A stretch of DNA of 62,521 nucleotides, from positions 1-62,521 of the forward strand of contig QZJQ01000003.1 in the NCBI GenBank assembly GCA_003599795.1, written 5' to 3'. Below, one piece after another: positions 5,599 through 32,993 of this stretch. This DNA is from Nitrospiraceae bacterium (GTDB lineage Bacteria > Nitrospirota > Thermodesulfovibrionia > Thermodesulfovibrionales > UBA1546). Position numbers and translations under genes: made by a program. Under the pieces are notes generated by a model, which saw only the letters and a list, made by a program, of their open reading frames with translations, did not search any database and was not told where the DNA came from. The stretch's first letter is position 1. Each line of letters opens with the position of its first letter.

Positions 5599-6972
5599 CT
5601 AAAATTCATACCGCATCTGGAAATACACATTATCATTCTTATCCAGCTGCCCGAACTGGCTCCACCTCTCGCCTTCGCCGAAGATGTTCGCTCCGACTGC
5701 AGCCCAGATATGGTCTGAGAAATTATATTTAACTTCGGGGTTCAGCATGTAATCTCCGTCAGACGTGCTGTAGAAGGAGAAGAATGAAAGCTTTAACGTC
5801 TGGTGCATGAGCATCTGCGTTAATCTTATGGTTGCAAGCTGATAGAGCTTTCTGTCCTTTGGAAGTCCCCCGGGCTGATTCTTTTTATACTCAGAATAAT
5901 CATGCATATATTCGCTAAGAAACTGCACCCCTACTGTGAAATCCTCCCATAACTGCCTCTGATACCCGATAAGAAATTTTGTCTGCGAATTCGGGACAGT
6001 ATAATCCGTTCCTGAGCTGTCTTGCCTTGAGTCATAATATCCCCCTTCAAGACTCAGAACACCGTCCAAGGCCCTTCCCTGAAGGCTCGCGCCGTAAACA
6101 GAGAGCTTGGGATAATGATATGTAATCTTTGTAGTGCTATTTATATCGTCAGGTATCATATAAGGCTTGCGGTAGAATCCCCTGTATAAATATACCGACG
6201 CATCAAACCCTGCAACATCCCTGTAAGCCCTTAATGCAAATTCTGTGTTCTTAAAATTCGTAGCAGGGTCTGTTTCTTCCCTGTTCGTAACGCCCGGCAT
6301 GGGGTCGAACATATAGAATCTTCTTGCATCGGTATAGTTATTAGGCTCAAATATCGGTATGGCAATGAATTCAAATGAGGCAAATTCCGGATAGGCCCCA
6401 ATCTTTACCCCGTCAGCTCCCTTTTTCATATACTCCAGCGGCCTTCCTGAAAAGAACGCCTCATAGTCTTTCGGAAATACATCATTTATAAATATCAGGT
6501 CTCCAATCCCCCATGTAATTATCTGCCTGCCTGCCCTTATATCCCATTTCTTTTCAACATGGTCAATATAGCCTTCCCTTAACTCTATCTGTGCCTTCTC
6601 ATCAATATGGTCATAAAAGGCGTCTGTTTTCAGGAATAACCTGAACGGCTCCTTTGAGGCGTCAAGCTTTAACTGCAATCTCTCCTCAGCCCATTTAAAA
6701 TCTCCTCCGTCAGGGTTAGCCCTTGTGCCAAAAGAATAATTCCCTTGAAAGAAGCCGTGAATAGAGACATCGGCTGCGTATGAAGGGAAAATACAAGCGC
6801 AGCAGAGCAGTAGCGCAGTAGAACAGTAGCGCAGTAGAACAGTAGCGCAGTAGAACAGTAGCGCAGTAGAACAGGTGATTTGTTTGCCTGTTGCTCTGCT
6901 GCTTTGTTGCGCTGTTGCGCTGTTGCTCTGCTGCTCCGCTGTTCTGTTGCTCTGCTTTTTCACTCTATCCAC
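5599..6972 (-). CDS. outer-membrane beta-barrel protein (DUF1302/porin-like); N-terminus encoded by a tandem-repeat element
   Basis: 457-aa ORF ending in aromatic YEF; alternating beta-strand pattern; adjacent to a LolA-like protein. The first ~55 codons are low-complexity repeat translation. Confidence 0.6.
   Translation of the reverse strand: MDRVKKQSNRTAEQQSNSATAQQSSRATGKQITCSTALLFYCATVLLRYCSTALLLCCACIFPSYAADVSIHGFFQGNYSFGTRANPDGGDFKWAEERLQLKLDASKEPFRLFLKTDAFYDHIDEKAQIELREGYIDHVEKKWDIRAGRQIITWGIGDLIFINDVFPKDYEAFFSGRPLEYMKKGADGVKIGAYPEFASFEFIAIPIFEPNNYTDARRFYMFDPMPGVTNREETDPATNFKNTEFALRAYRDVAGFDASVYLYRGFYRKPYMIPDDINSTTKITYHYPKLSVYGASLQGRALDGVLSLEGGYYDSRQDSSGTDYTVPNSQTKFLIGYQRQLWEDFTVGVQFLSEYMHDYSEYKKNQPGGLPKDRKLYQLATIRLTQMLMHQTLKLSFFSFYSTSDGDYMLNPEVKYNFSDHIWAAVGANIFGEGERWSQFGQLDKNDNVYFQMRYEF
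6797..6955. repeat. STRR-like tandem octamer repeat element (two arrays flanking a spacer)
   Basis: Left array (GCGCAGTA/GAACAGTA)n at 6797-6874, spacer GGTGATTTGTTTGC, right array (CTGTTGCK/CTGCTGCT)n at 6888-6955. Confidence 0.85.
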
Positions 6973-7824: not shown

Positions 7825-8011
7825 TATTTTTATCTATTCCCATGGCCCTGAGAATCGGCATCGTAGGGCACCAGTTTGTAAAAGCCGACTGCAAAAGATT
7901 CAGTCCCATAAAGGCAGTCAGTATCAGCCAATTGGGAGAATGAATCTGCGCCAAGCCAAGACTGACCAGGACAACTAAACCTGCCATGCCTCTTAATATT
8001 CTTTCCATCAT
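7820..8011 (-). CDS. DUF2892 (YgaP C-terminal-like) small membrane protein
   Basis: 63-aa ORF, two TM helices, conserved NWCP motif; overlaps the stop of the YeeE/YedE gene. Confidence 0.75.
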   Translation of the reverse strand: MMERILRGMAGLVVLVSLGLAQIHSPNWLILTAFMGLNLLQSAFTNWCPTMPILRAMGIDKNK

Positions 8012-9399
8012 TTTACACCTCCTGCATTTTCTTCGTGAAGTCCCTTTAAGAATATCTCATCTGTGGATTTTGTTATATATTCTTTTGGGGTTACCTTTGT
8101 AATCTGCGAACCCTTTTTTATGGCCCATATAAGAAGGGCTATGAGCATTGCGCTATAGAGAATTGCAAAACCATATTGTATATATGGATTGTCAGGCAGG
8201 AGTTCAAGCATATTCTTTTCCTTCATAAAACCCCTTGAGAAGAAGAACTCGTCTATCCTGTCCTGATACAATGAATACGGGAGATATCCGAGCATAAAGC
8301 CGGGCAGCGCCGTCAGCCCTGTAAGATATGCCATGCCCAGCCTTGAATAGGTCCTTATCTCACATCCTAACATGAGAACACTTCCAATCCCAAGCAATGG
8401 CCCTCCAATCAAATGCCCAAGATGAAATCCCCACTTATATCTTCCTGCCTCAACAACTACAGGCACATCCCACCCTAAGGCTATCCATGTGAAAAGTATT
8501 GTGAGGTTAAACATTATTATTGCAACAAGAAGCCCGGCAAAGGGCATCATCCCTGTAAACATGGTCTGCGTAATCTTTGCAACCTTCATTGCTTCAAAGT
8601 GCTTTGGTTTCATCAGAAGGGACTTTGGAGACATGACAGCGCACTCGGTCCCAAAGCCGGATTTGGCAATGCCAAAGCCTACAAGAAATCCGACAAGCCC
8701 TTTGAGAAAAATCTCAAACCACGGCAGTCCGCCAATGCTGTTCGCCGATTCTCCTTTAACCGCTGTCCAGAAAACTGAGGCAATCAACAAAAGAAAAAAC
8801 GCGGTAAAAATAAGCCGCACAGGGTCTTTGTAAGGCTTATGTTCAGGGTCATAGCTCAATGTCTCCGTATTGTATTCAAGCTCAAGACATTGATGGACTG
8901 TTGCCTTTACCTCATGGTGTTTCATGAATCCTCCGGCATTCATCTTTGCCATTAACATAAAGGCAAGATATGCAAAAGGAATGCTTACAATCGCTACAAC
9001 GATAGAGGTAAGGCTCATGCCCGGTATTCCTCCGAGATAATGCCATGCCGTGCATCCTTGAGCGAGCCTTGTGCCGAAACCAAAGATTATGCCTCCGATA
9101 AAGGCAAGTATAGCAACACGCAAAGGATATTTCACCCATGTTTTGCGTTCGCGCTCTATAAGCGCTACAGAACAGCCGCCGATAATTATTCCCATTACTA
9201 CCCAGTGGATATCAGCGCTGTAGGTCCTTGCGATAAAATCTGTCTTTGTAATATTTTCCTCAAGGGTGGCAAACATTTTTGCGAGTCCTGTTGTTATCGG
9301 TATCGGTGTGTCATACTTAAGGAAATACAATACCTCTGCAAGCCCGACCAGAAAGCCTCCCCAGATAAATGACCATGGTTTTGTAAGAATATTCCTCAT
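8008..9399 (-). CDS. YeeE/YedE family sulfur (thiosulfate) or selenium transporter, duplicated-domain form
   Basis: Polytopic membrane ORF with conserved Cys loops (LAQGCTAW, GTECAV, LGCEIRT). Start placed at Met 9399, preceded by GGTGGAGAA; the track ORF extends to 9444. Confidence 0.8.
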   Translation of the reverse strand: MRNILTKPWSFIWGGFLVGLAEVLYFLKYDTPIPITTGLAKMFATLEENITKTDFIARTYSADIHWVVMGIIIGGCSVALIERERKTWVKYPLRVAILAFIGGIIFGFGTRLAQGCTAWHYLGGIPGMSLTSIVVAIVSIPFAYLAFMLMAKMNAGGFMKHHEVKATVHQCLELEYNTETLSYDPEHKPYKDPVRLIFTAFFLLLIASVFWTAVKGESANSIGGLPWFEIFLKGLVGFLVGFGIAKSGFGTECAVMSPKSLLMKPKHFEAMKVAKITQTMFTGMMPFAGLLVAIIMFNLTILFTWIALGWDVPVVVEAGRYKWGFHLGHLIGGPLLGIGSVLMLGCEIRTYSRLGMAYLTGLTALPGFMLGYLPYSLYQDRIDEFFFSRGFMKEKNMLELLPDNPYIQYGFAILYSAMLIALLIWAIKKGSQITKVTPKEYITKSTDEIFLKGLHEENAGGVK

Positions 9400-9403
9400 C
9401 AGA

Positions 9404-9901
9404 TTACTTCTCCACCGGATAGTTTTTTGTTGCTGCCTTCTCAATTGCCTTTTTCATAGCCTCGCCGCCGCGATAATTTTTAATCCACGCTGCATGCCCG
9501 AAAGCCATCGTATATGCATCATAGCCAAGCACCCTCAGCGATACAACTGGAAGATTCTGCACCTGCCCCGTAACGCATACGAGAATTATCTTTTTGTCCT
9601 TTGGAAGTTTTCCAAGGTTTTCGGGCTTCAGAATCTCGTTATAGGATATGTGTATCGCCCCCGGAATATGACCTGCTTTGTATTCGCCTGGATTAGGCCT
9701 TACATCCACAACCAAGAAGTCTGTCTGCTTGGTCTTTATCCACATATAAACCTCGTCTGCAGTTACCTGCCAGTGTCCTTCTTCCAATCCCTTCATCAAC
9801 ACATCACTCATTTTTTTTGCAATGTCATCCTGCGCAAAAACAGGCACAGCCAGAGAAACAACAATAATAGCTATCATCAAATGCATCCCAATCTTTTTCA
9901 C
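9404..9901 (-). CDS. periplasmic rhodanese-domain sulfurtransferase
   Basis: 165-aa ORF, signal peptide ...VPVFAQDD; rhodanese motifs VVDVRP..GHIPGAIHI and active-site loop CVTGQ. Confidence 0.85.
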   Translation of the reverse strand: MKKIGMHLMIAIIVVSLAVPVFAQDDIAKKMSDVLMKGLEEGHWQVTADEVYMWIKTKQTDFLVVDVRPNPGEYKAGHIPGAIHISYNEILKPENLGKLPKDKKIILVCVTGQVQNLPVVSLRVLGYDAYTMAFGHAAWIKNYRGGEAMKKAIEKAATKNYPVEK

Positions 9902-13962: not shown

Positions 13963-15150
13963 TTAAGGCAGATTTGTCAAGCCGTGTTTTATCTTCCATA
14001 AGAAATATTTCTCAAATGCGATTTTGCCCCATTTATAAACGATGCCCTCTTTGAGCGCAGACTCCTGCCTTGGCGGAAGCAAGGGCTTTGCCCTCATCAA
14101 TGAAGCAGTATTCCCCATGTCCATAAGGCACAGGACATCCATCTCATAAGACGCCGGCGCAGGGCTTCCTGAAATCTCTGCGGCTATGCTGTAAGCGGCG
14201 GCCTTTGCCATCTTCACTGTCATAAAGCCTGTCTTTGGAACACCTGTCGGGATTACTGTTTGTTCAAGGGGAGCAATTGCAACTGCAACGCCGATTGTAA
14301 AAATATTCCTGTGCTTCTTGTGTCTCATATTGTCGTCAACAGGAATGAATCCCCTCGGATTTCCGAGATGCGCTACAGCAGGAACGCCTTTCATTGCAGG
14401 CGCAAACATTGCAAGTTTATGCGGTATCTTTGAGCCGTCCTTAAGCCTCGCCTCGCCGGGCACAAATTCTTCAACAGCAGTGTTTGTTATAACCTTTATG
14501 TCCCGCTTTGCAAATTCATCCTCCATTATTCTCTTTGAGTTTCTAAGCCCTCCGATGCCAAAATGCCCGATGTAAGGCTCTGAAGTCACAAAAACAATCG
14601 GAGCCTTATTCCTTATTTTTCTTTTGCGAAGTTCCGCGTCTGTCTCAAATGCGTATTCATACGCGGGCCCAAAGCAACTGACACCCTGAACAGCGCCAGT
14701 AATAATTGCGCCCGGATTTTCGAGGAATCTATTCCATGCCTTATTGGCCATTTCCGCTTGGTCAAGTGTAAAAATGCATTCGGTATTTCCTTTGTAAGGA
14801 CCAAGCCCCGGCACTTCTTCAAAGGCAAGATGGGGGCCTGTCGAGATTACAAGGTAGTCATAATGAATTTCATGCGTTCCCGTGATGACCTTAGAGGCAT
14901 CCGCGTCAATGCCTTTTGCTTCTCCGTGAATAAATGTTATGCCTTTTCTTTCAAGCATCGGCTTCAGCGGAGCAGTTATATCTTCTGCTTTTCTCCAGCC
15001 CATTGCAAGCCATGGAAGCGACGGTATAAATACAAACTTATCCATATCACTCAGGAGCGTTATGTCTGCTGTTTTGCCAAGAAGCCGTTTAAGTTCAAAA
15101 GCTGCTGTGAGGCCTCCGAATGAACCGCCCAGAACAACTATTTTTGACAT
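13963..15150 (-). CDS. sqr: sulfide:quinone oxidoreductase-type FAD-dependent pyridine nucleotide-disulfide oxidoreductase
   Basis: 395-aa ORF; N-terminal Rossmann IVVLGGSFGG; length and context (DsrE-family, rhodanese) match SQR-type flavoproteins. Confidence 0.75.
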   Translation of the reverse strand: MSKIVVLGGSFGGLTAAFELKRLLGKTADITLLSDMDKFVFIPSLPWLAMGWRKAEDITAPLKPMLERKGITFIHGEAKGIDADASKVITGTHEIHYDYLVISTGPHLAFEEVPGLGPYKGNTECIFTLDQAEMANKAWNRFLENPGAIITGAVQGVSCFGPAYEYAFETDAELRKRKIRNKAPIVFVTSEPYIGHFGIGGLRNSKRIMEDEFAKRDIKVITNTAVEEFVPGEARLKDGSKIPHKLAMFAPAMKGVPAVAHLGNPRGFIPVDDNMRHKKHRNIFTIGVAVAIAPLEQTVIPTGVPKTGFMTVKMAKAAAYSIAAEISGSPAPASYEMDVLCLMDMGNTASLMRAKPLLPPRQESALKEGIVYKWGKIAFEKYFLWKIKHGLTNLP

Positions 15151-15164
15151 GTTACCCTCCCCCT

Positions 15165-15446
15165 TTAAAACATTCCTGCTACTTTATCGTTATCAGCCAT
15201 AAGGTCCACAAGGCTGTCATAGCCTGTTTCCCTTATGCCCTTTCTTATCTCGGCGTCTTTGATTCCTCTTAATTTCAAGTCCTCTTTAAGAGCGTATGTA
15301 TTACCGCAAAAACCTTCAAGCCTTTCCCCCTGCGCAAAATAAACACCGTTCTGTATTAAGAAAAGGTCAGCAGCCATATCCTGAGCAAGCTTCACTCCTC
15401 TTTTCCCATCTGCTGTGTCAGGCCCGCTTTTAACTATTACAAGCAT
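15165..15446 (-). CDS. dsrH: DsrH/TusB-like sulfur relay protein
   Basis: 93-aa ORF MLVIVKSGP...LIQNGVYFA; last gene of an E-F-H triplet. Confidence 0.75.
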   Translation of the reverse strand: MLVIVKSGPDTADGKRGVKLAQDMAADLFLIQNGVYFAQGERLEGFCGNTYALKEDLKLRGIKDAEIRKGIRETGYDSLVDLMADNDKVAGMF

Positions 15447-15555: not shown

Positions 15556-15909
15556 TTAAAAAATCATCGTTGTTTTTGCTTCTTTGACTGTTTCCGCTAT
15601 CTCTGCGCCGGCAACAATCTTAACGCCGTCAACCACATCTCCTGTCTCCACTTGCAGCTCTGTTAGTGAACCCTTATCCGCATAAACTTCGACTCCCATA
15701 TCAATACAATCCTTCAATGCCCCTTCCAGATTTGTAAACCCGGTTCCTGCATCATCCTGCCCTTTTCTGGCAAGCAGAACGCCGCCGTCAACCAAAAGAA
15801 GACTAACGGCAAGTTCATCTGCCGCACCGCCCATTGCATGTCTTACAGCCTCTGCTGCATTTATATCGCCATACGGCGCTTTCCTGAGTATCATTGCAAT
15901 TTTTGACAT
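15556..15909 (-). CDS. dsrF: DsrF/TusC-like sulfur relay protein
   Basis: 117-aa ORF MSKIAMILRKAPYG...LLLVDGGVLLA. Confidence 0.75.
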   Translation of the reverse strand: MSKIAMILRKAPYGDINAAEAVRHAMGGAADELAVSLLLVDGGVLLARKGQDDAGTGFTNLEGALKDCIDMGVEVYADKGSLTELQVETGDVVDGVKIVAGAEIAETVKEAKTTMIF

Positions 15910-15931
15910 CGCTACCTCCTTTCAAATCAGG

Positions 15932-15985
15932 GCAGCAGCTTCAGAACTACTGCTCTGTTGCTCTATTGCTCTATGCTCTTCATGC
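15932..15985. repeat. STRR-like repeat array at the 3' end of the dsrE-like gene
   Basis: GCAGCAG CTTCAGA ACTACTG CTCTGTT GCTCTAT TGCTCTA TGCTCTT; same unit family as 15466-15555 and 6797-6955. Confidence 0.7.
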
Positions 15986-16336
15986 TCCGATGTTAAGCCA
16001 GACATCGCTATCCCCCATTGTCTTAAAAAGCCCCTTCAGAGAGCCAATCTCTGCGCCCTCCAGATAATCATCTTTCGCTGCACGGCGAAAATTCACGCAG
16101 CCGCCTCAGAGATAAACCTTCAGCCCTTTCTGTATCAGCCTTGAGAATTCCTCTTCTGCGTTTGCTATCCCCTTTGCTTTTTGCCTTTGCAGAAAACAAT
16201 AAACTCCGTCTCCTGAAGCGATGAGATTTACAGTATGCCCTTTTGTTAATGCAGACTCCGCAATCCGCACTGCAGTTACAGTGTTTTCATACGAATAAGG
16301 TGACGTTGATAAAAGCAGCGTAAATATTTTTCCCAT
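15980..16336 (-). CDS. dsrE: DsrE/TusD-like sulfur relay protein with in-frame TGA (candidate selenocysteine) at the active-site position
   Basis: Start ATG at 16336 with RBS GAAGGAGG. The track ORF stops at TGA 16106-16108, but the frame stays open for 41 more codons: ...LKVYL-U-GGCVNFRRAAKDDYLEGAEIGSLKGLFKTMGDSDVWLNIGA. U sits where DsrE/TusD has its persulfide Cys. An 8-bp hairpin (16077-16101) starts 4 nt after the TGA. Confidence 0.7.
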
Positions 16337-16348
16337 ATACCCTCCTTC

Positions 16349-16384
16349 ATATTCAAATATAATGATATTTGAATATATTGTCAA
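16349..16384 (-). promoter_or_regulatory. sigma-70-type promoter overlapped by a perfect 12-4-12 inverted repeat (candidate ArsR-family operator) upstream of the dsrE-like operon
   Basis: Minus strand: TTGACA (16379-16384), 17 nt, TATATT (16356-16361). Palindrome ATATTCAAATAT-AATG-ATATTTGAATAT at 16349-16376. Confidence 0.6.
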
Positions 16385-16407
16385 GAAAAATATTTCCCCT
16401 CTATGGT

Positions 16408-17187
16408 TCAGAAAATATCAACCCAGACTTTTATTGCGGTGCCGGATATTATCAGCGCAAGCAGCCATCTTAAAAACCTGGTGTTTGTTTTTTTGCCTGC
16501 GATTGCGCCTAATCTCGCTGTTGGAATTGCGCCAGCAAGAAGCGCTATAGACATAAAGAAAGGCACCTGCCCTGTTGCGGCCTTGCCTATTAAGCCTGCG
16601 GATGCTGAAAACAGCCCGATGGCAAGCGTGCTTCCAAGGGCAACCCTCAAAGGAATCTTCAGCACGTATAAGAGTATCGGTATTGTTATAAAGGCCCCTC
16701 CCTGTCCCACAAGGCCTATTAAAAAACCGATGAAGATTCCAATGAGGATAGCTGCCGGTTTATTGAAAACAACATTCTCTTCCGTAAGCTCATCGCGCTC
16801 ATAATTCCTTGGCATAAGCATCATTGCCGCAGCAATAAGAGCAAGCGCGGCAAAGATAAAGAGTATCGGCTTGTCAGGGACCAGTTTTGATATAAGGGCG
16901 CCTGAAAGCGAGGATGCAAACAGCGAGGAGCCGAGCGTTAACACAAGCGGTTTATTGACGAGCCTGTTTTCGTGGTAATAGAACATTGCTGAAAGAGATG
17001 CAAAAAAACCCTGCATCATCGTAAGGCCTGTAATGCTTTTAACATCTATCTCTTGAAACCCCAGCAGGGGAGGCGCATAAAACAAGAGCGGAAACATTAT
17101 TATTCCGCCCCCTAATCCAAGGAGGCCTGAAAGAAATCCGACTCAAGCGCCGGCAAGAAAAAGGAAAATAAGGAATGTGAACGGCAT
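16408..17187 (-). CDS. TauE/SafE (DUF81) family anion permease with in-frame TGA near the N-terminus (candidate selenocysteine or readthrough)
   Basis: ATG at 17187 lies 1 nt after the selD stop (TAAAATG). It reads MPFTFLIFLFLAGA-U(17143-17145)-VGFLSGLLGLGGGIIMFPLL, restoring the family-typical first TM and GxxGxGGG motif that the 229-aa track ORF lacks. Hairpin GCCUCC-UUGGAUUA-GGGGGC at 17107-17126. Confidence 0.6.
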
Positions 17188-17188
17188 T

Positions 17189-18235
17189 TTATTTCTCTAC
17201 ATGTATTCTTTTATCGCCGCCAAGAGGTTTATCAATAACATCTCCGATATAAGCTGCTATTATTTTTTCTTTTTGAAGAGCGCTTATCAGCCTGCCTTTT
17301 TTTTCTGCCGGCACGAATATGAGCAGACCGCCTGATGTCTGGGCGTCGTTCATTAAAATCTTCTCCACTTCTTTAACTCCCTTGCCCCAGGTTACGTATG
17401 ATTCGTAATTTTTGACATTGGTCTTTGTCCCTCCCGGAACAATACCGGCATCGGCAAGCCTTATTGCGTCATCAAAATACGGCACGCTACCTGAATAAAT
17501 ACGCGCACTGCACTTGCTTGCAGAAAGGACTTCATGAAGATGCCCTATAAGGCCGAAGCCTGTTATGTCTGTTGCTGTGCTTACGCCGGTTTCAAGCATA
17601 ATCTCGCTGGCCCTTTTATTCAATGCTGTCATTGAGGCCGTGAATTCCTCAATGATAGGACTGCTGCATTTGTCTGCTTTCACGCCTGTGGAAATAATGC
17701 CGGTGCCTATCTTTTTTGTCAGTATAAGCGCATCTCCGGCACGGGCTTTTGAATTATCAAGAATCTTTGCCGGATGTATCACGCCCATAACGGCAAAGCC
17801 GAATTTCGGCTCTTTATCTCTGATGGTGTGGCCTCCTATGATAGAAACCCCGGCCTCGGACATCTTGTCTATGCCGCCCTTCATAATCTGTTTAAGCAAA
17901 GGGAAAAATTCAGGCTGATTCGGGAAGAGGGCGACATTCAAGGCAACAAGCGGCTTTGCTCCCATTGCGTATACATCCGAGAGCGCGTTTGCAGCAGCTA
18001 TAGCGCCGAACCAGTAAGGGTCGTCAACTATCGGCGTAAAGAAATCAGTTGTAAGAACAACCGCGACATCATCCGTAATGCGGTAAACCCCTGCGTCATC
18101 TGAATTGGCATGGCCAACCAGAACATTCGGGTCTGTTATGTCAGGCAGCTGCCCCAGCACGTGGGACAGGTCCGAAGGACTGAACTTTGCAGCTCAACCC
18201 GCGCAGCTTGAAAGGTTTGTCAGTTTGATGTCCAT
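17189..18235 (-). CDS. selD: selenide, water dikinase (selenophosphate synthetase), selenocysteine-containing form
   Basis: The track ORF lacks the N-terminus. Extension from ATG 18235 gives MDIKLTNLSSCAG-U-AAKFSPSDLSHVLGQLP, with TGA at 18194-18196 aligned to the Cys of the SelD GAGCGCK motif. Hairpin CAGUC-CUUCG-GAC(C)UG at 18167-18182 starts 11 nt after the TGA. The rest of the ORF is SelD/AIR-synthase-like. Confidence 0.85.
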
Positions 18236-18253
18236 CCTATCCTCTCCGTAAAG

Positions 18254-18595
18254 TTAATGTTTTCTTGTACCGGGATATTTCCCTTTTTTGGTGACCGGAC
18301 AACACGCAGGAGCAGGCAACTCCTTTATGTAATCCTTTTTCAGAATCTTTATTATGTCAGGAATTATCGGATCCCTGAGAAAATAACACTTGAGCCTGCC
18401 GTCCATGTAATAGTCAATCGCTCCGTATCGCCTGAGGAGCGAAAGGTGCTGCGATACATTAGGCTGGCTTATGCCAAGAAATCCTTCAATATCACTGACA
18501 CATTTCACGCCCTTCATAAGCTCTTCAAGTATTTTAATCCTTGCCGGATGGCCTATCGCCCTGAGGAGTTCAGCTCTTTTATCCAGTGAACGCAT
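18254..18595 (-). CDS. ArsR/SmtB-family transcriptional regulator with Cys-rich C-terminal tail
   Basis: 113-aa wHTH (HPARIKILEEL, FLGISQPNVSQHL); tail PAPACCPVTKKG. Confidence 0.9.
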   Translation of the reverse strand: MRSLDKRAELLRAIGHPARIKILEELMKGVKCVSDIEGFLGISQPNVSQHLSLLRRYGAIDYYMDGRLKCYFLRDPIIPDIIKILKKDYIKELPAPACCPVTKKGKYPGTRKH

Positions 18596-32879: not shown

Positions 32880-32993
32880 ATCTTGTCACCGAACATATAA
32901 TCTACTTCTACGGCAGATATAGATTATTTGCGTCATGATAGCATAATGTGTTCAATGCTCGCAATGCAGAAAAGCACTAGAGTAGGGTTTTTA

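Follow-up and report, generated by a model that had tools for sequence, protein, structure and literature searches.

Analyzed here is a 62,521-nucleotide stretch of contig QZJQ01000003.1 from a Nitrospiraceae bacterium, referred to below as the window. Three consecutive genes on its minus strand, which encode selenophosphate synthetase (SelD), a TauE/SafE-type permease, and a DsrE-like protein, are probably subject to local recoding, in which one UGA codon per gene specifies selenocysteine (Sec or U) by a SelB-type mechanism. An original prediction, made from the DNA alone, had placed a single in-frame TGA in each gene and had claimed that a full-length protein typical of its family results once this codon is read through. 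Indeed, the translations contain exactly one such codon each, and the read-through products match TIGR00476, PF01925, and PF02635, respectively. Both SelD and the DsrE-like UxxC proteins have long been recognized as selenoprotein families (PMC1088965, PMC13188914), and the novelty is confined to the TauE case and its tight selD-tauE linkage. On the basis of the comparative data presented below, TauE appears to represent an unrecognized, recently evolved selenoprotein family that employs the standard bacterial mechanism.

Conserved UGA codons in selD and the dsrE-like gene

The closest database relatives of the window belong to the Nitrospirota, order Thermodesulfovibrionales. The comparative sample comprised 80 species-representative loci anchored on the TauE homologue, nine contigs retrieved by exact-protein look-ups, and three loci from a metagenome scan, one of which represents a new TGA lineage. 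The codon aligned to each U position was read by tblastn across the loci. A bacterial Sec insertion sequence (SECIS) element is recognized as a stem-loop just 3' of the UGA, within the coding sequence, having a small apical loop that contains a G (PMC1088965). When the 70 nt past each TGA were folded as single sequences, the z-scores were -1.1, -1.7, and +0.6. Such folding does not discriminate, and thus a comparative analysis was needed. In that analysis all three UGA codons are conserved, and each is followed, 14-24 nt downstream, by a conserved hairpin with a G in its small apical loop. It is this hairpin, inside the coding sequence, that would direct the reading of each UGA as Sec.

Read through the TGA at 18196-18194, selD begins MDIKLTNLSSCAG-U-AAKFSP. 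The product scores 371.5 bits against TIGR00476 (cutoff 125) and 327.9 against NF002098 (cutoff 299), and it also matches PF00586 and PF02769. Every one of the 69 distinct Nitrospirota sequences that include the selD N-terminus has TGA in the U column; one divergent paralogue was left out of this set. The TGA had been assigned to the catalytic Cys/Sec position, and the alignments bear this out: U14 and K17 correspond to C17 and K20 of Escherichia coli SelD (3U0O), and U14 coincides with the Sec-to-Cys engineered site of Aquifex aeolicus SelD (2ZOD/2YYE, SSGCAAK). The gene is the known, textbook Sec-containing SelD, with a predicted enzymatic activity in which Sec would take the place of the catalytic Cys17. 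As in the Sec-containing enzymes from Haemophilus influenzae and A. aeolicus, the domain architecture is the same, Sec lies in the N-terminal glycine-rich loop at Cys17 with a lysine three residues on, and the SECIS element is inside the coding sequence. Nothing essential differs, although the window motif reads C-A-G-U-A-A-K rather than G-A-G-C-G-C-K, and the apical hairpin is located 24 nt past the UGA.

The selD hairpin at 18149-18169 contains 8 bp, with 97% of cells paired in the 69 sequences. One pair (40/54) covaries, being U-G in 35 sequences, U-A in 17, C-G in 8, G-U in 6, and A-U in 1, and another varies among C-G, U-A, and U-G. The loop keeps an invariant G and U at bases 2 and 3. 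When the partner strand is shifted by 1-3 columns, the pairing of the whole tested structure drops from 93.5% to 29-47%. The smaller hairpin noted at first (~18180-18170) is 86% paired without covariation, such that 18149-18169 replaces it as the supported element. In a selD subclade with FSPAEL (AGCCCUGCUGAA) in place of FSPSDL, the small first hairpin gives way to another pairing, UUCAG/CCCUG/CUGAA (alignment columns 24-39, window 18182-18167). The lower part of the selD SECIS element may, judging from these alignments, have been remodelled in that subclade.

In the dsrE-like gene, reading through the TGA at 16108-16106 yields KVYL-U-GGCVNFRRA and a total of 41 additional codons. The resulting product matches PF02635 with 66 bits over profile positions 1-114 of 116. 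The TGA is kept in every orthologue found (12 of 12 distinct DNA sequences). Among the top 120 database homologues, 110 or more stop at this TGA as 76-aa stubs, which amounts to systematic mis-annotation (database matches P0122-P0240). Full-length Cys homologues are rare; in two of them, P0198 and P0229, the sequence is VYLCGGC with Cys in the U column, and in the UGGC columns E. coli YchN (1JX7) has LCKTC. The proposal that U sits where DsrE-type proteins carry their persulfide cysteine was thus correct. The DsrE-like UxxC selenoprotein family was first reported from the Sargasso Sea in 2005 (PMC1088965), and it is still listed in a 2026 review (PMC13188914). By its sequence the window gene is a member, with the same PF02635 fold and UxxC motif, for which Cys homologues have CxxC in those columns. 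It differs in that it heads a dsrE-dsrF-dsrH-like triplet beside selD. The protein is closer to YchN than to bona fide DsrE or TusD, and a functional parallel is provided by the CGxC DsrE-like domain of the SelD-associated YedF (PMC5322559).

The dsrE-like hairpin at 16072-16091 (U-UUUCGC / CGUGCA / GCGAAA-G) pairs in eight of eight group-A sequences, and the alifold consensus agrees. Its six core pairs, which include two six-fold-degenerate Arg codons, are invariant in sequence apart from one mismatch in locus L004, and hence they provide no covariation. The loop core, CGUGC, is that of the selD loop. In group B, a hairpin CCCGC/GGUCUU/GCGGG is conserved in four of four sequences. The originally named stem at 16077-16101 (GCUGC/GCAGC) is the minimum free energy choice in the window, but one of its pairs fails in five of eight orthologues and holds in three. 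A second DsrE-like selenoprotein subfamily, VDI-U-TGCMKTRGLAGED, was observed at loci L024, L047, L054, and L089; it is ~41% identical and has its own hairpin, this CCCGC/GGUCUU/GCGGG, with dsrF and dsrH downstream.

The DsrF-like gene comes after the UGA-containing dsrE gene at every locus that has the latter. Both the E-F-H gene order and the Pfam domains of DsrEFH are present. The TusBCD/DsrEFH equivalog thresholds are missed, however, with scores of 21 for TIGR03012 (cutoff 89), 38 for TIGR03010 (94), and 42 for TIGR03011 (49). The subunits are therefore described as a DsrEFH-like relay rather than as members of the DsrEFH/TusBCD system. As suggested by its domains and order, the triplet may work like a relay. 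In the proposed mechanism, the U-x-x-C center of the DsrE-like protein would stand at the DsrE/YchN active-site cysteine, and together with the adjacent DsrF- and DsrH-like subunits would probably constitute a persulfide or perselenide relay.

The UGA codon of the TauE permease

Reading through the TGA at 17145-17143 gives MPFTFLIFLFLAGA-U-VGFLSGLLGLGGG. The product matches PF01925 with 149 bits (cutoff 32.6); residues 9-253 cover profile positions 1-236 of 237, a match that requires the 14-codon N-terminal piece to be joined to the remainder. The claim that the protein thereby regains its first transmembrane helix (TM1) and its motif is confirmed: homology to the TM1 of full-length homologues is seen in the 14 upstream codons. 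The motif G-x-x-x-G-x-x-G-x-G-G is duplicated, occurring in both TM1 and TM5. In TM1, the invariant VGF(L/F)SGLLGxGGG motif would have Sec15 as the last variable residue ahead of it, and the protein contains no other cysteine. The tauE ATG lies 1 nt past the selD TAA, and the upstream 14-codon piece has no overlap with selD.

Codon 15 is TGA only in the window, L001, L069, L081-84, L085-88, and L090, which amount to six lineages in independent assemblies (14 contigs). Elsewhere, in ~70 species, it is ATA/ATC/ATT, TCN, GTN, GCN, TTA/TTG/CTN, TTC, or ACA. In a neighbor-joining tree the TGA lineages form one clade whose neighbors carry TCA, and thus a change of Ser TCA to TGA is the simplest origin. 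The only non-TGA tauE inside the clade is that of L089 (the P0002 lineage; contig ERZ1286166, 4001-4831). Over its first ~180 nt it shares 93-100% identity with that of L049, a distant allele with TTC and without the hairpin, whereas over the remainder its identity to the TGA clade is 84-94%. By these identities the L089 gene is a recombinant from which the TGA and the hairpin were swapped out together. The L089 contig is also error-ridden, with selD and guaA split into pieces.

In pairwise Nei-Gojobori comparisons among five TGA lineages (dS 0.27-1.2), the ratio of nonsynonymous to synonymous substitution rates (dN/dS) was 0.03-0.28 in codons 1-14 and 0.06-0.12 in codons 16-259. As these values are low on both sides of the TGA, both sides must be translated in one frame. 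Within the clade, codons 16-30 display many synonymous and zero nonsynonymous changes. In five of the six lineages there is no ATG, GTG, or TTG between the TGA and Met31. TauE thus shows the conserved TGA and the two-sided coding constraint expected of a bacterial selenoprotein.

The stem-loop at 17107-17126, alone among the three originally named, proved to be the conserved one. It consists of a 7-bp stem and the loop UGGAUU. As described above for bacterial SECIS elements (PMC1088965), it is placed within the coding sequence just 3' of the UGA and has a G in its small apical loop, and recognition by SelB is predicted. Its folding energy ranges from -11.8 to -19.3 kcal/mol in the TGA clade, whereas 67 non-TGA homologues have a median of -6.6 kcal/mol (Mann-Whitney p = 1.7e-4), and the TGA lineages are among the most stable of 72 distinct homologous tauE segments. 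Codons 21-25, which form the 5' arm and the loop, are invariant at synonymous sites, in a gene where 72% of the four-fold sites vary within the clade. The 3' arm shows only two substitutions, both of which keep the pairing (G-C to G-U and U-G to U-A). Since CUN-CUN can pair with GGN-GGN-GGN, a tendency to form hairpins is intrinsic to the GLLGxGGG coding sequence. This property, together with a hairpin in the non-TGA locus L056, suggests that the tauE SECIS element was pre-adapted.

Decoding of the UGA codons and the alternatives

Several observations weigh against Sec in these proteins, and in TauE especially. Neither selA, selB, nor selC occurs in the window or in any fetched locus, and Rfam lacks a matching bacterial SECIS model against which the hairpins could be scored. 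The residues in the TauE U column are Ser, Ile, Val, Ala, Leu, Phe, and Thr, with Cys only in P0092 and P0108 (2 of 120 proteins). The alignment of U with Cys, expected from the original prediction for all three genes, is accordingly seen in selD and the dsrE-like gene, but not in tauE, which thereby lacks the Sec/Cys pair looked for in a bacterial selenoprotein. By helical periodicity, residue 15 lies on the hydrophobic face of TM1 opposite the glycine stripe, with no evident catalytic rationale. The tauE loop does not have the GU dinucleotide common to the selD and dsrE loops, and its hairpin is supported by six lineages that are closely related, in which just two substitutions are informative. 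Finally, L056, with TCG at the focal codon, carries a near-identical hairpin (~6043-6090; GCCUUCU/UGGAAU/AGGGGGC, -15.6 kcal/mol). For tauE, the dN/dS values and the hairpin override the failed alignment of Sec with Cys. From the sequence comparisons we infer that the TauE UGA is genuinely recoded, and as Sec rather than as another residue.

ARAGORN found no tRNA-Sec in the window and loci L001-L089. Rfam searches (the window at gathering thresholds and 15900-18300 in E-value mode) returned no bacterial SECIS or tRNA-Sec match, only noise. The genes selA, selB, selC, along with selD, have been reported in Thermodesulfovibrio genomes (PMC5389517), and a selC nested within selB is a noted feature of the Nitrospirae (PMC13188914). 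SelB and tRNA-Sec would serve as the decoders, their presence being deduced from the neighboring selenoprotein genes and from these two reports.

The alternative that survives best, albeit an unlikely one, is that decoding of the tauE UGA (and perhaps, when selenium is limiting, of all three) inserts a residue other than Sec, either through a SelB-delivered, selC*-type tRNA-Cys(UCA), which would give Cys, or by leaky near-cognate read-through. Such selC* tRNA-Cys genes have been reported in Thermodesulfovibrio and the Nitrospirae (PMC5389517), and position 15 of TauE tolerates many residues, including the Cys of P0092 and P0108. No selC*-type tRNA is present in the window or the fetched loci, however, and leaky read-through needs no clade-specific conserved hairpin at SECIS distance. 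The Cys route would employ the same SelB/SECIS mechanism, and hence it is a variant of Sec recoding rather than a contradiction of it.

Also unlikely is the view that the tauE TGA is a true stop, which would leave a 14-residue leader peptide followed by a truncated TauE initiated at Met31 (or at a GTG in L081), or else a young pseudogene, with selD and the dsrE-like gene as the only selenoprotein genes. Gene callers and the NCBI annotation do give products of 229-244 aa, the U column is not Cys, and in L081 a GTG directly follows the TGA. A protein initiated at Met31 would miss, however, TM1 and the most conserved motif of the family, and the 14 codons ahead of the TGA share homology with TM1 in full-length homologues. 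The pseudogene, leader-peptide plus reinitiation, and error readings are disfavored because dN/dS is ~0.1 both before and after the TGA while dS reaches 1.2, codons 16-30 vary synonymously only and yet offer no start codon in five of six lineages, and there is no overlap with selD.

The chance that the TGAs are sequencing or assembly errors, or that TGA is a sense codon genome-wide, is negligible: nothing beyond the in-frame stops themselves favors it, the refutation by assembly error foreseen at the outset did not materialize because the same TGAs recur across dozens of mutually independent assemblies (selD in 69 distinct sequences, dsrE in 12, and tauE in six independent lineages, 14 contigs including the window), and the genetic code is standard since TGA is the ordinary terminator of 15 of the 44 long open reading frames in the window, tauE itself among them. 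The original view of local recoding rather than a reassigned code is thus upheld by TGA conservation across species, purifying selection on both sides, conserved hairpins, and the use of TGA as an ordinary stop elsewhere in the window. A scan for further TGA-interrupted genes produced 53 mechanical candidates, and the plausible ones were not Sec sites. Those rejected include the TGA at 9456, upstream of a YeeE/YedE-like gene, and extensions at 32888, 45098, 56784, and 60782.

Gene context and a possible role for the permease

The features of the region are collected in Table 1. The genes from 18595 to 13963 (ArsR, selD, tauE, dsrE-like, dsrF-like, dsrH-like, and SQR-like) are co-oriented on the minus strand. 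An ArsR gene also precedes selD in the relatives L085-L089. The SQR-like gene displays weak matches to NF049943 (SQR_III_seleno) and TIGR03169 (Nterm_to_SelD), both far under cutoff. In one TGA-clade lineage (L085 5788-6302, L086, and L087) it is present as fragments of 126 and 51 aa versus 395 aa in the window, which looks like deletion or decay. The YeeE/YedE-like protein at 8008-9444 is weakly similar to the YedE/FdhT of selenium metabolism, under all curated cutoffs.

Table 1. Features of the selD-tauE-dsrE region, in window coordinates.
Feature	Position	Strand	Remarks
ArsR/SmtB-family regulator	18254-18595	-	PF01022 and NF033788 matches; directly upstream of selD
selD, selenophosphate synthetase	17189-18235	-	348 codons, predicted Sec at codon 14; TIGR00476
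selD predicted Sec codon, TGA	18194-18196	-	TGA column in 69 distinct Nitrospirota selD sequences
selD putative SECIS hairpin, CUGUCCCA / CGUGC / UGGGGCAG	18149-18169	-	begins 24 nt past UGA
tauE, TauE/SafE (TSUP, PF01925) permease	16408-17187	-	259 codons, candidate Sec at codon 15
tauE in-frame TGA, candidate Sec codon	17143-17145	-	TGA in six lineages
tauE SECIS-like hairpin, GCCUCCU / UGGAUU / AGGGGGC	17107-17126	-	begins 16 nt past UGA
DsrE-like (PF02635) predicted selenoprotein	15980-16336	-	118 codons, U77-G-G-C80 motif
dsrE-like predicted Sec codon, TGA	16106-16108	-	TGA in 12/12 distinct orthologous DNA sequences
dsrE-like putative SECIS hairpin, UUUUCGC / CGUGCA / GCGAAAG	16072-16091	-	begins 14 nt past UGA
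DsrF/TusC-like subunit	15556-15909	-	PF02635 match; TIGR03010 below cutoff
DsrH/TusB-like subunit	15165-15446	-	PF04077 match; TIGR03011 below cutoff
SQR-like FAD/pyridine-nucleotide-disulfide oxidoreductase	13963-15150	-	PF07992 match
DrsE_2/DsrE2-like gene	13934-13512	-	further sulfur-relay/export gene downstream of SQR-like gene
Second DsrE-family gene	13459-13139	-	downstream of SQR-like gene
Second ArsR regulator	13116-12787	-	downstream of SQR-like gene
MMPL/HAE3 RND transporter	12728-10383	-	downstream of SQR-like gene
YeeE/YedE/TsuA-family (PF04143) membrane protein	8008-9444	-	478 aa; Cys-type motifs RLAQGCTAW, GTECAV, LGCEIR

In 65 of 74 Nitrospirota species genomes, selD is positioned directly upstream of tauE on the same strand, with a median gap of 0 nt. 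On account of this adjacency we infer that the TSUP permease handles the selenium or sulfur species of SelD, and the linkage suggests a role in selenium transport. As a translationally coupled partner of SelD across the phylum, TauE would move inorganic selenium or sulfur species to or from the synthetase. In one small clade of the Thermodesulfovibrionales the codon for its variable residue 15, the last TM1 position before VGFLSGLLGxGGG, would then have become UGA, most parsimoniously from Ser TCA, and the hairpin-prone GLLGxGGG coding sequence would have been fixed as a SECIS element.

One possible, though not likely, reason for Sec at such a position is that the UGA acts as a translational selenium gate rather than in catalysis. 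With Sec at a variable TM1 residue of no chemical importance and a SECIS element derived from the GLLGxGGG sequence, the full-length permease would be made only when charged Sec-tRNA(Sec) and SelB are at hand, that is, when selenium is available. A substrate-binding selenol at Sec15 is as plausible as a regulatory gate. The placement of residue 15 relative to the pore derives from helical periodicity and column variability only, a PDB profile search having found no TSUP structure.

Like TauE, YeeE/YedE (GUxSG) and the ABC permease SaoP are integral membrane transporters of sulfur, selenium, or metal chemistry that carry Sec in a transmembrane segment and are typically mis-annotated as truncated. 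In those proteins Sec takes the place of a Cys or gating residue that is conserved and functionally placed, and variants with Cys exist as well. The candidate Sec of TauE, by contrast, is at a variable Ser/aliphatic residue in one young clade of an unrelated family (TSUP, PF01925), with no other Cys in the protein. The window TauE matches PF01925 over its full length, as expected for a TauE/SafE/YfcA anion permease (TSUP, TC 2.A.102). No known TSUP member is selenium-linked or Sec-containing in the literature searched, whereas the orthogroup of the window protein is in an operon with selD. Neither the 2026 selenoproteome review nor the 2022 Haft preprint nor the 2015 selenium-gene survey includes TauE, PF01925, YfcA, or DUF81, and in none of the literature searched was SelD or selenocysteine connected with TauE, DUF81, or "sulfite exporter". 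A selenoprotein model for the TauE family is missing from NCBIfam. The TGA-clade proteins are annotated as 229-244 aa with invented starts (MSGLLG... and VGFLSG...; P0004-P0009).

Selenoprotein catalogues of prokaryotes depend for the most part on finding Sec aligned with Cys. TauE breaks that rule alone while displaying the other hallmarks, a conserved TGA, two-sided coding constraint, and a conserved SECIS-like hairpin in a genome that probably uses Sec, and thus points to a class of recoding, Sec evolved from a non-Cys residue, that is missed by standard pipelines and by the NCBI annotation. Even selD and the dsrE-like gene, ordinary known selenoprotein genes, are systematically mis-annotated. 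Should the gate reading be true, TauE would be the first selenoprotein of the TSUP family and an example of Sec derived from a non-Cys residue that is invisible to Sec/Cys-homology pipelines, and the TSUP permease would be the missing selenium transporter that feeds SelD in the Nitrospirota. The near-universal, zero-spacer selD-tauE pair in this phylum nominates the TSUP permease as a selenium transporter, and it offers a testable answer to the question of how SelD is supplied with selenium in bacteria without a characterized YedE system.

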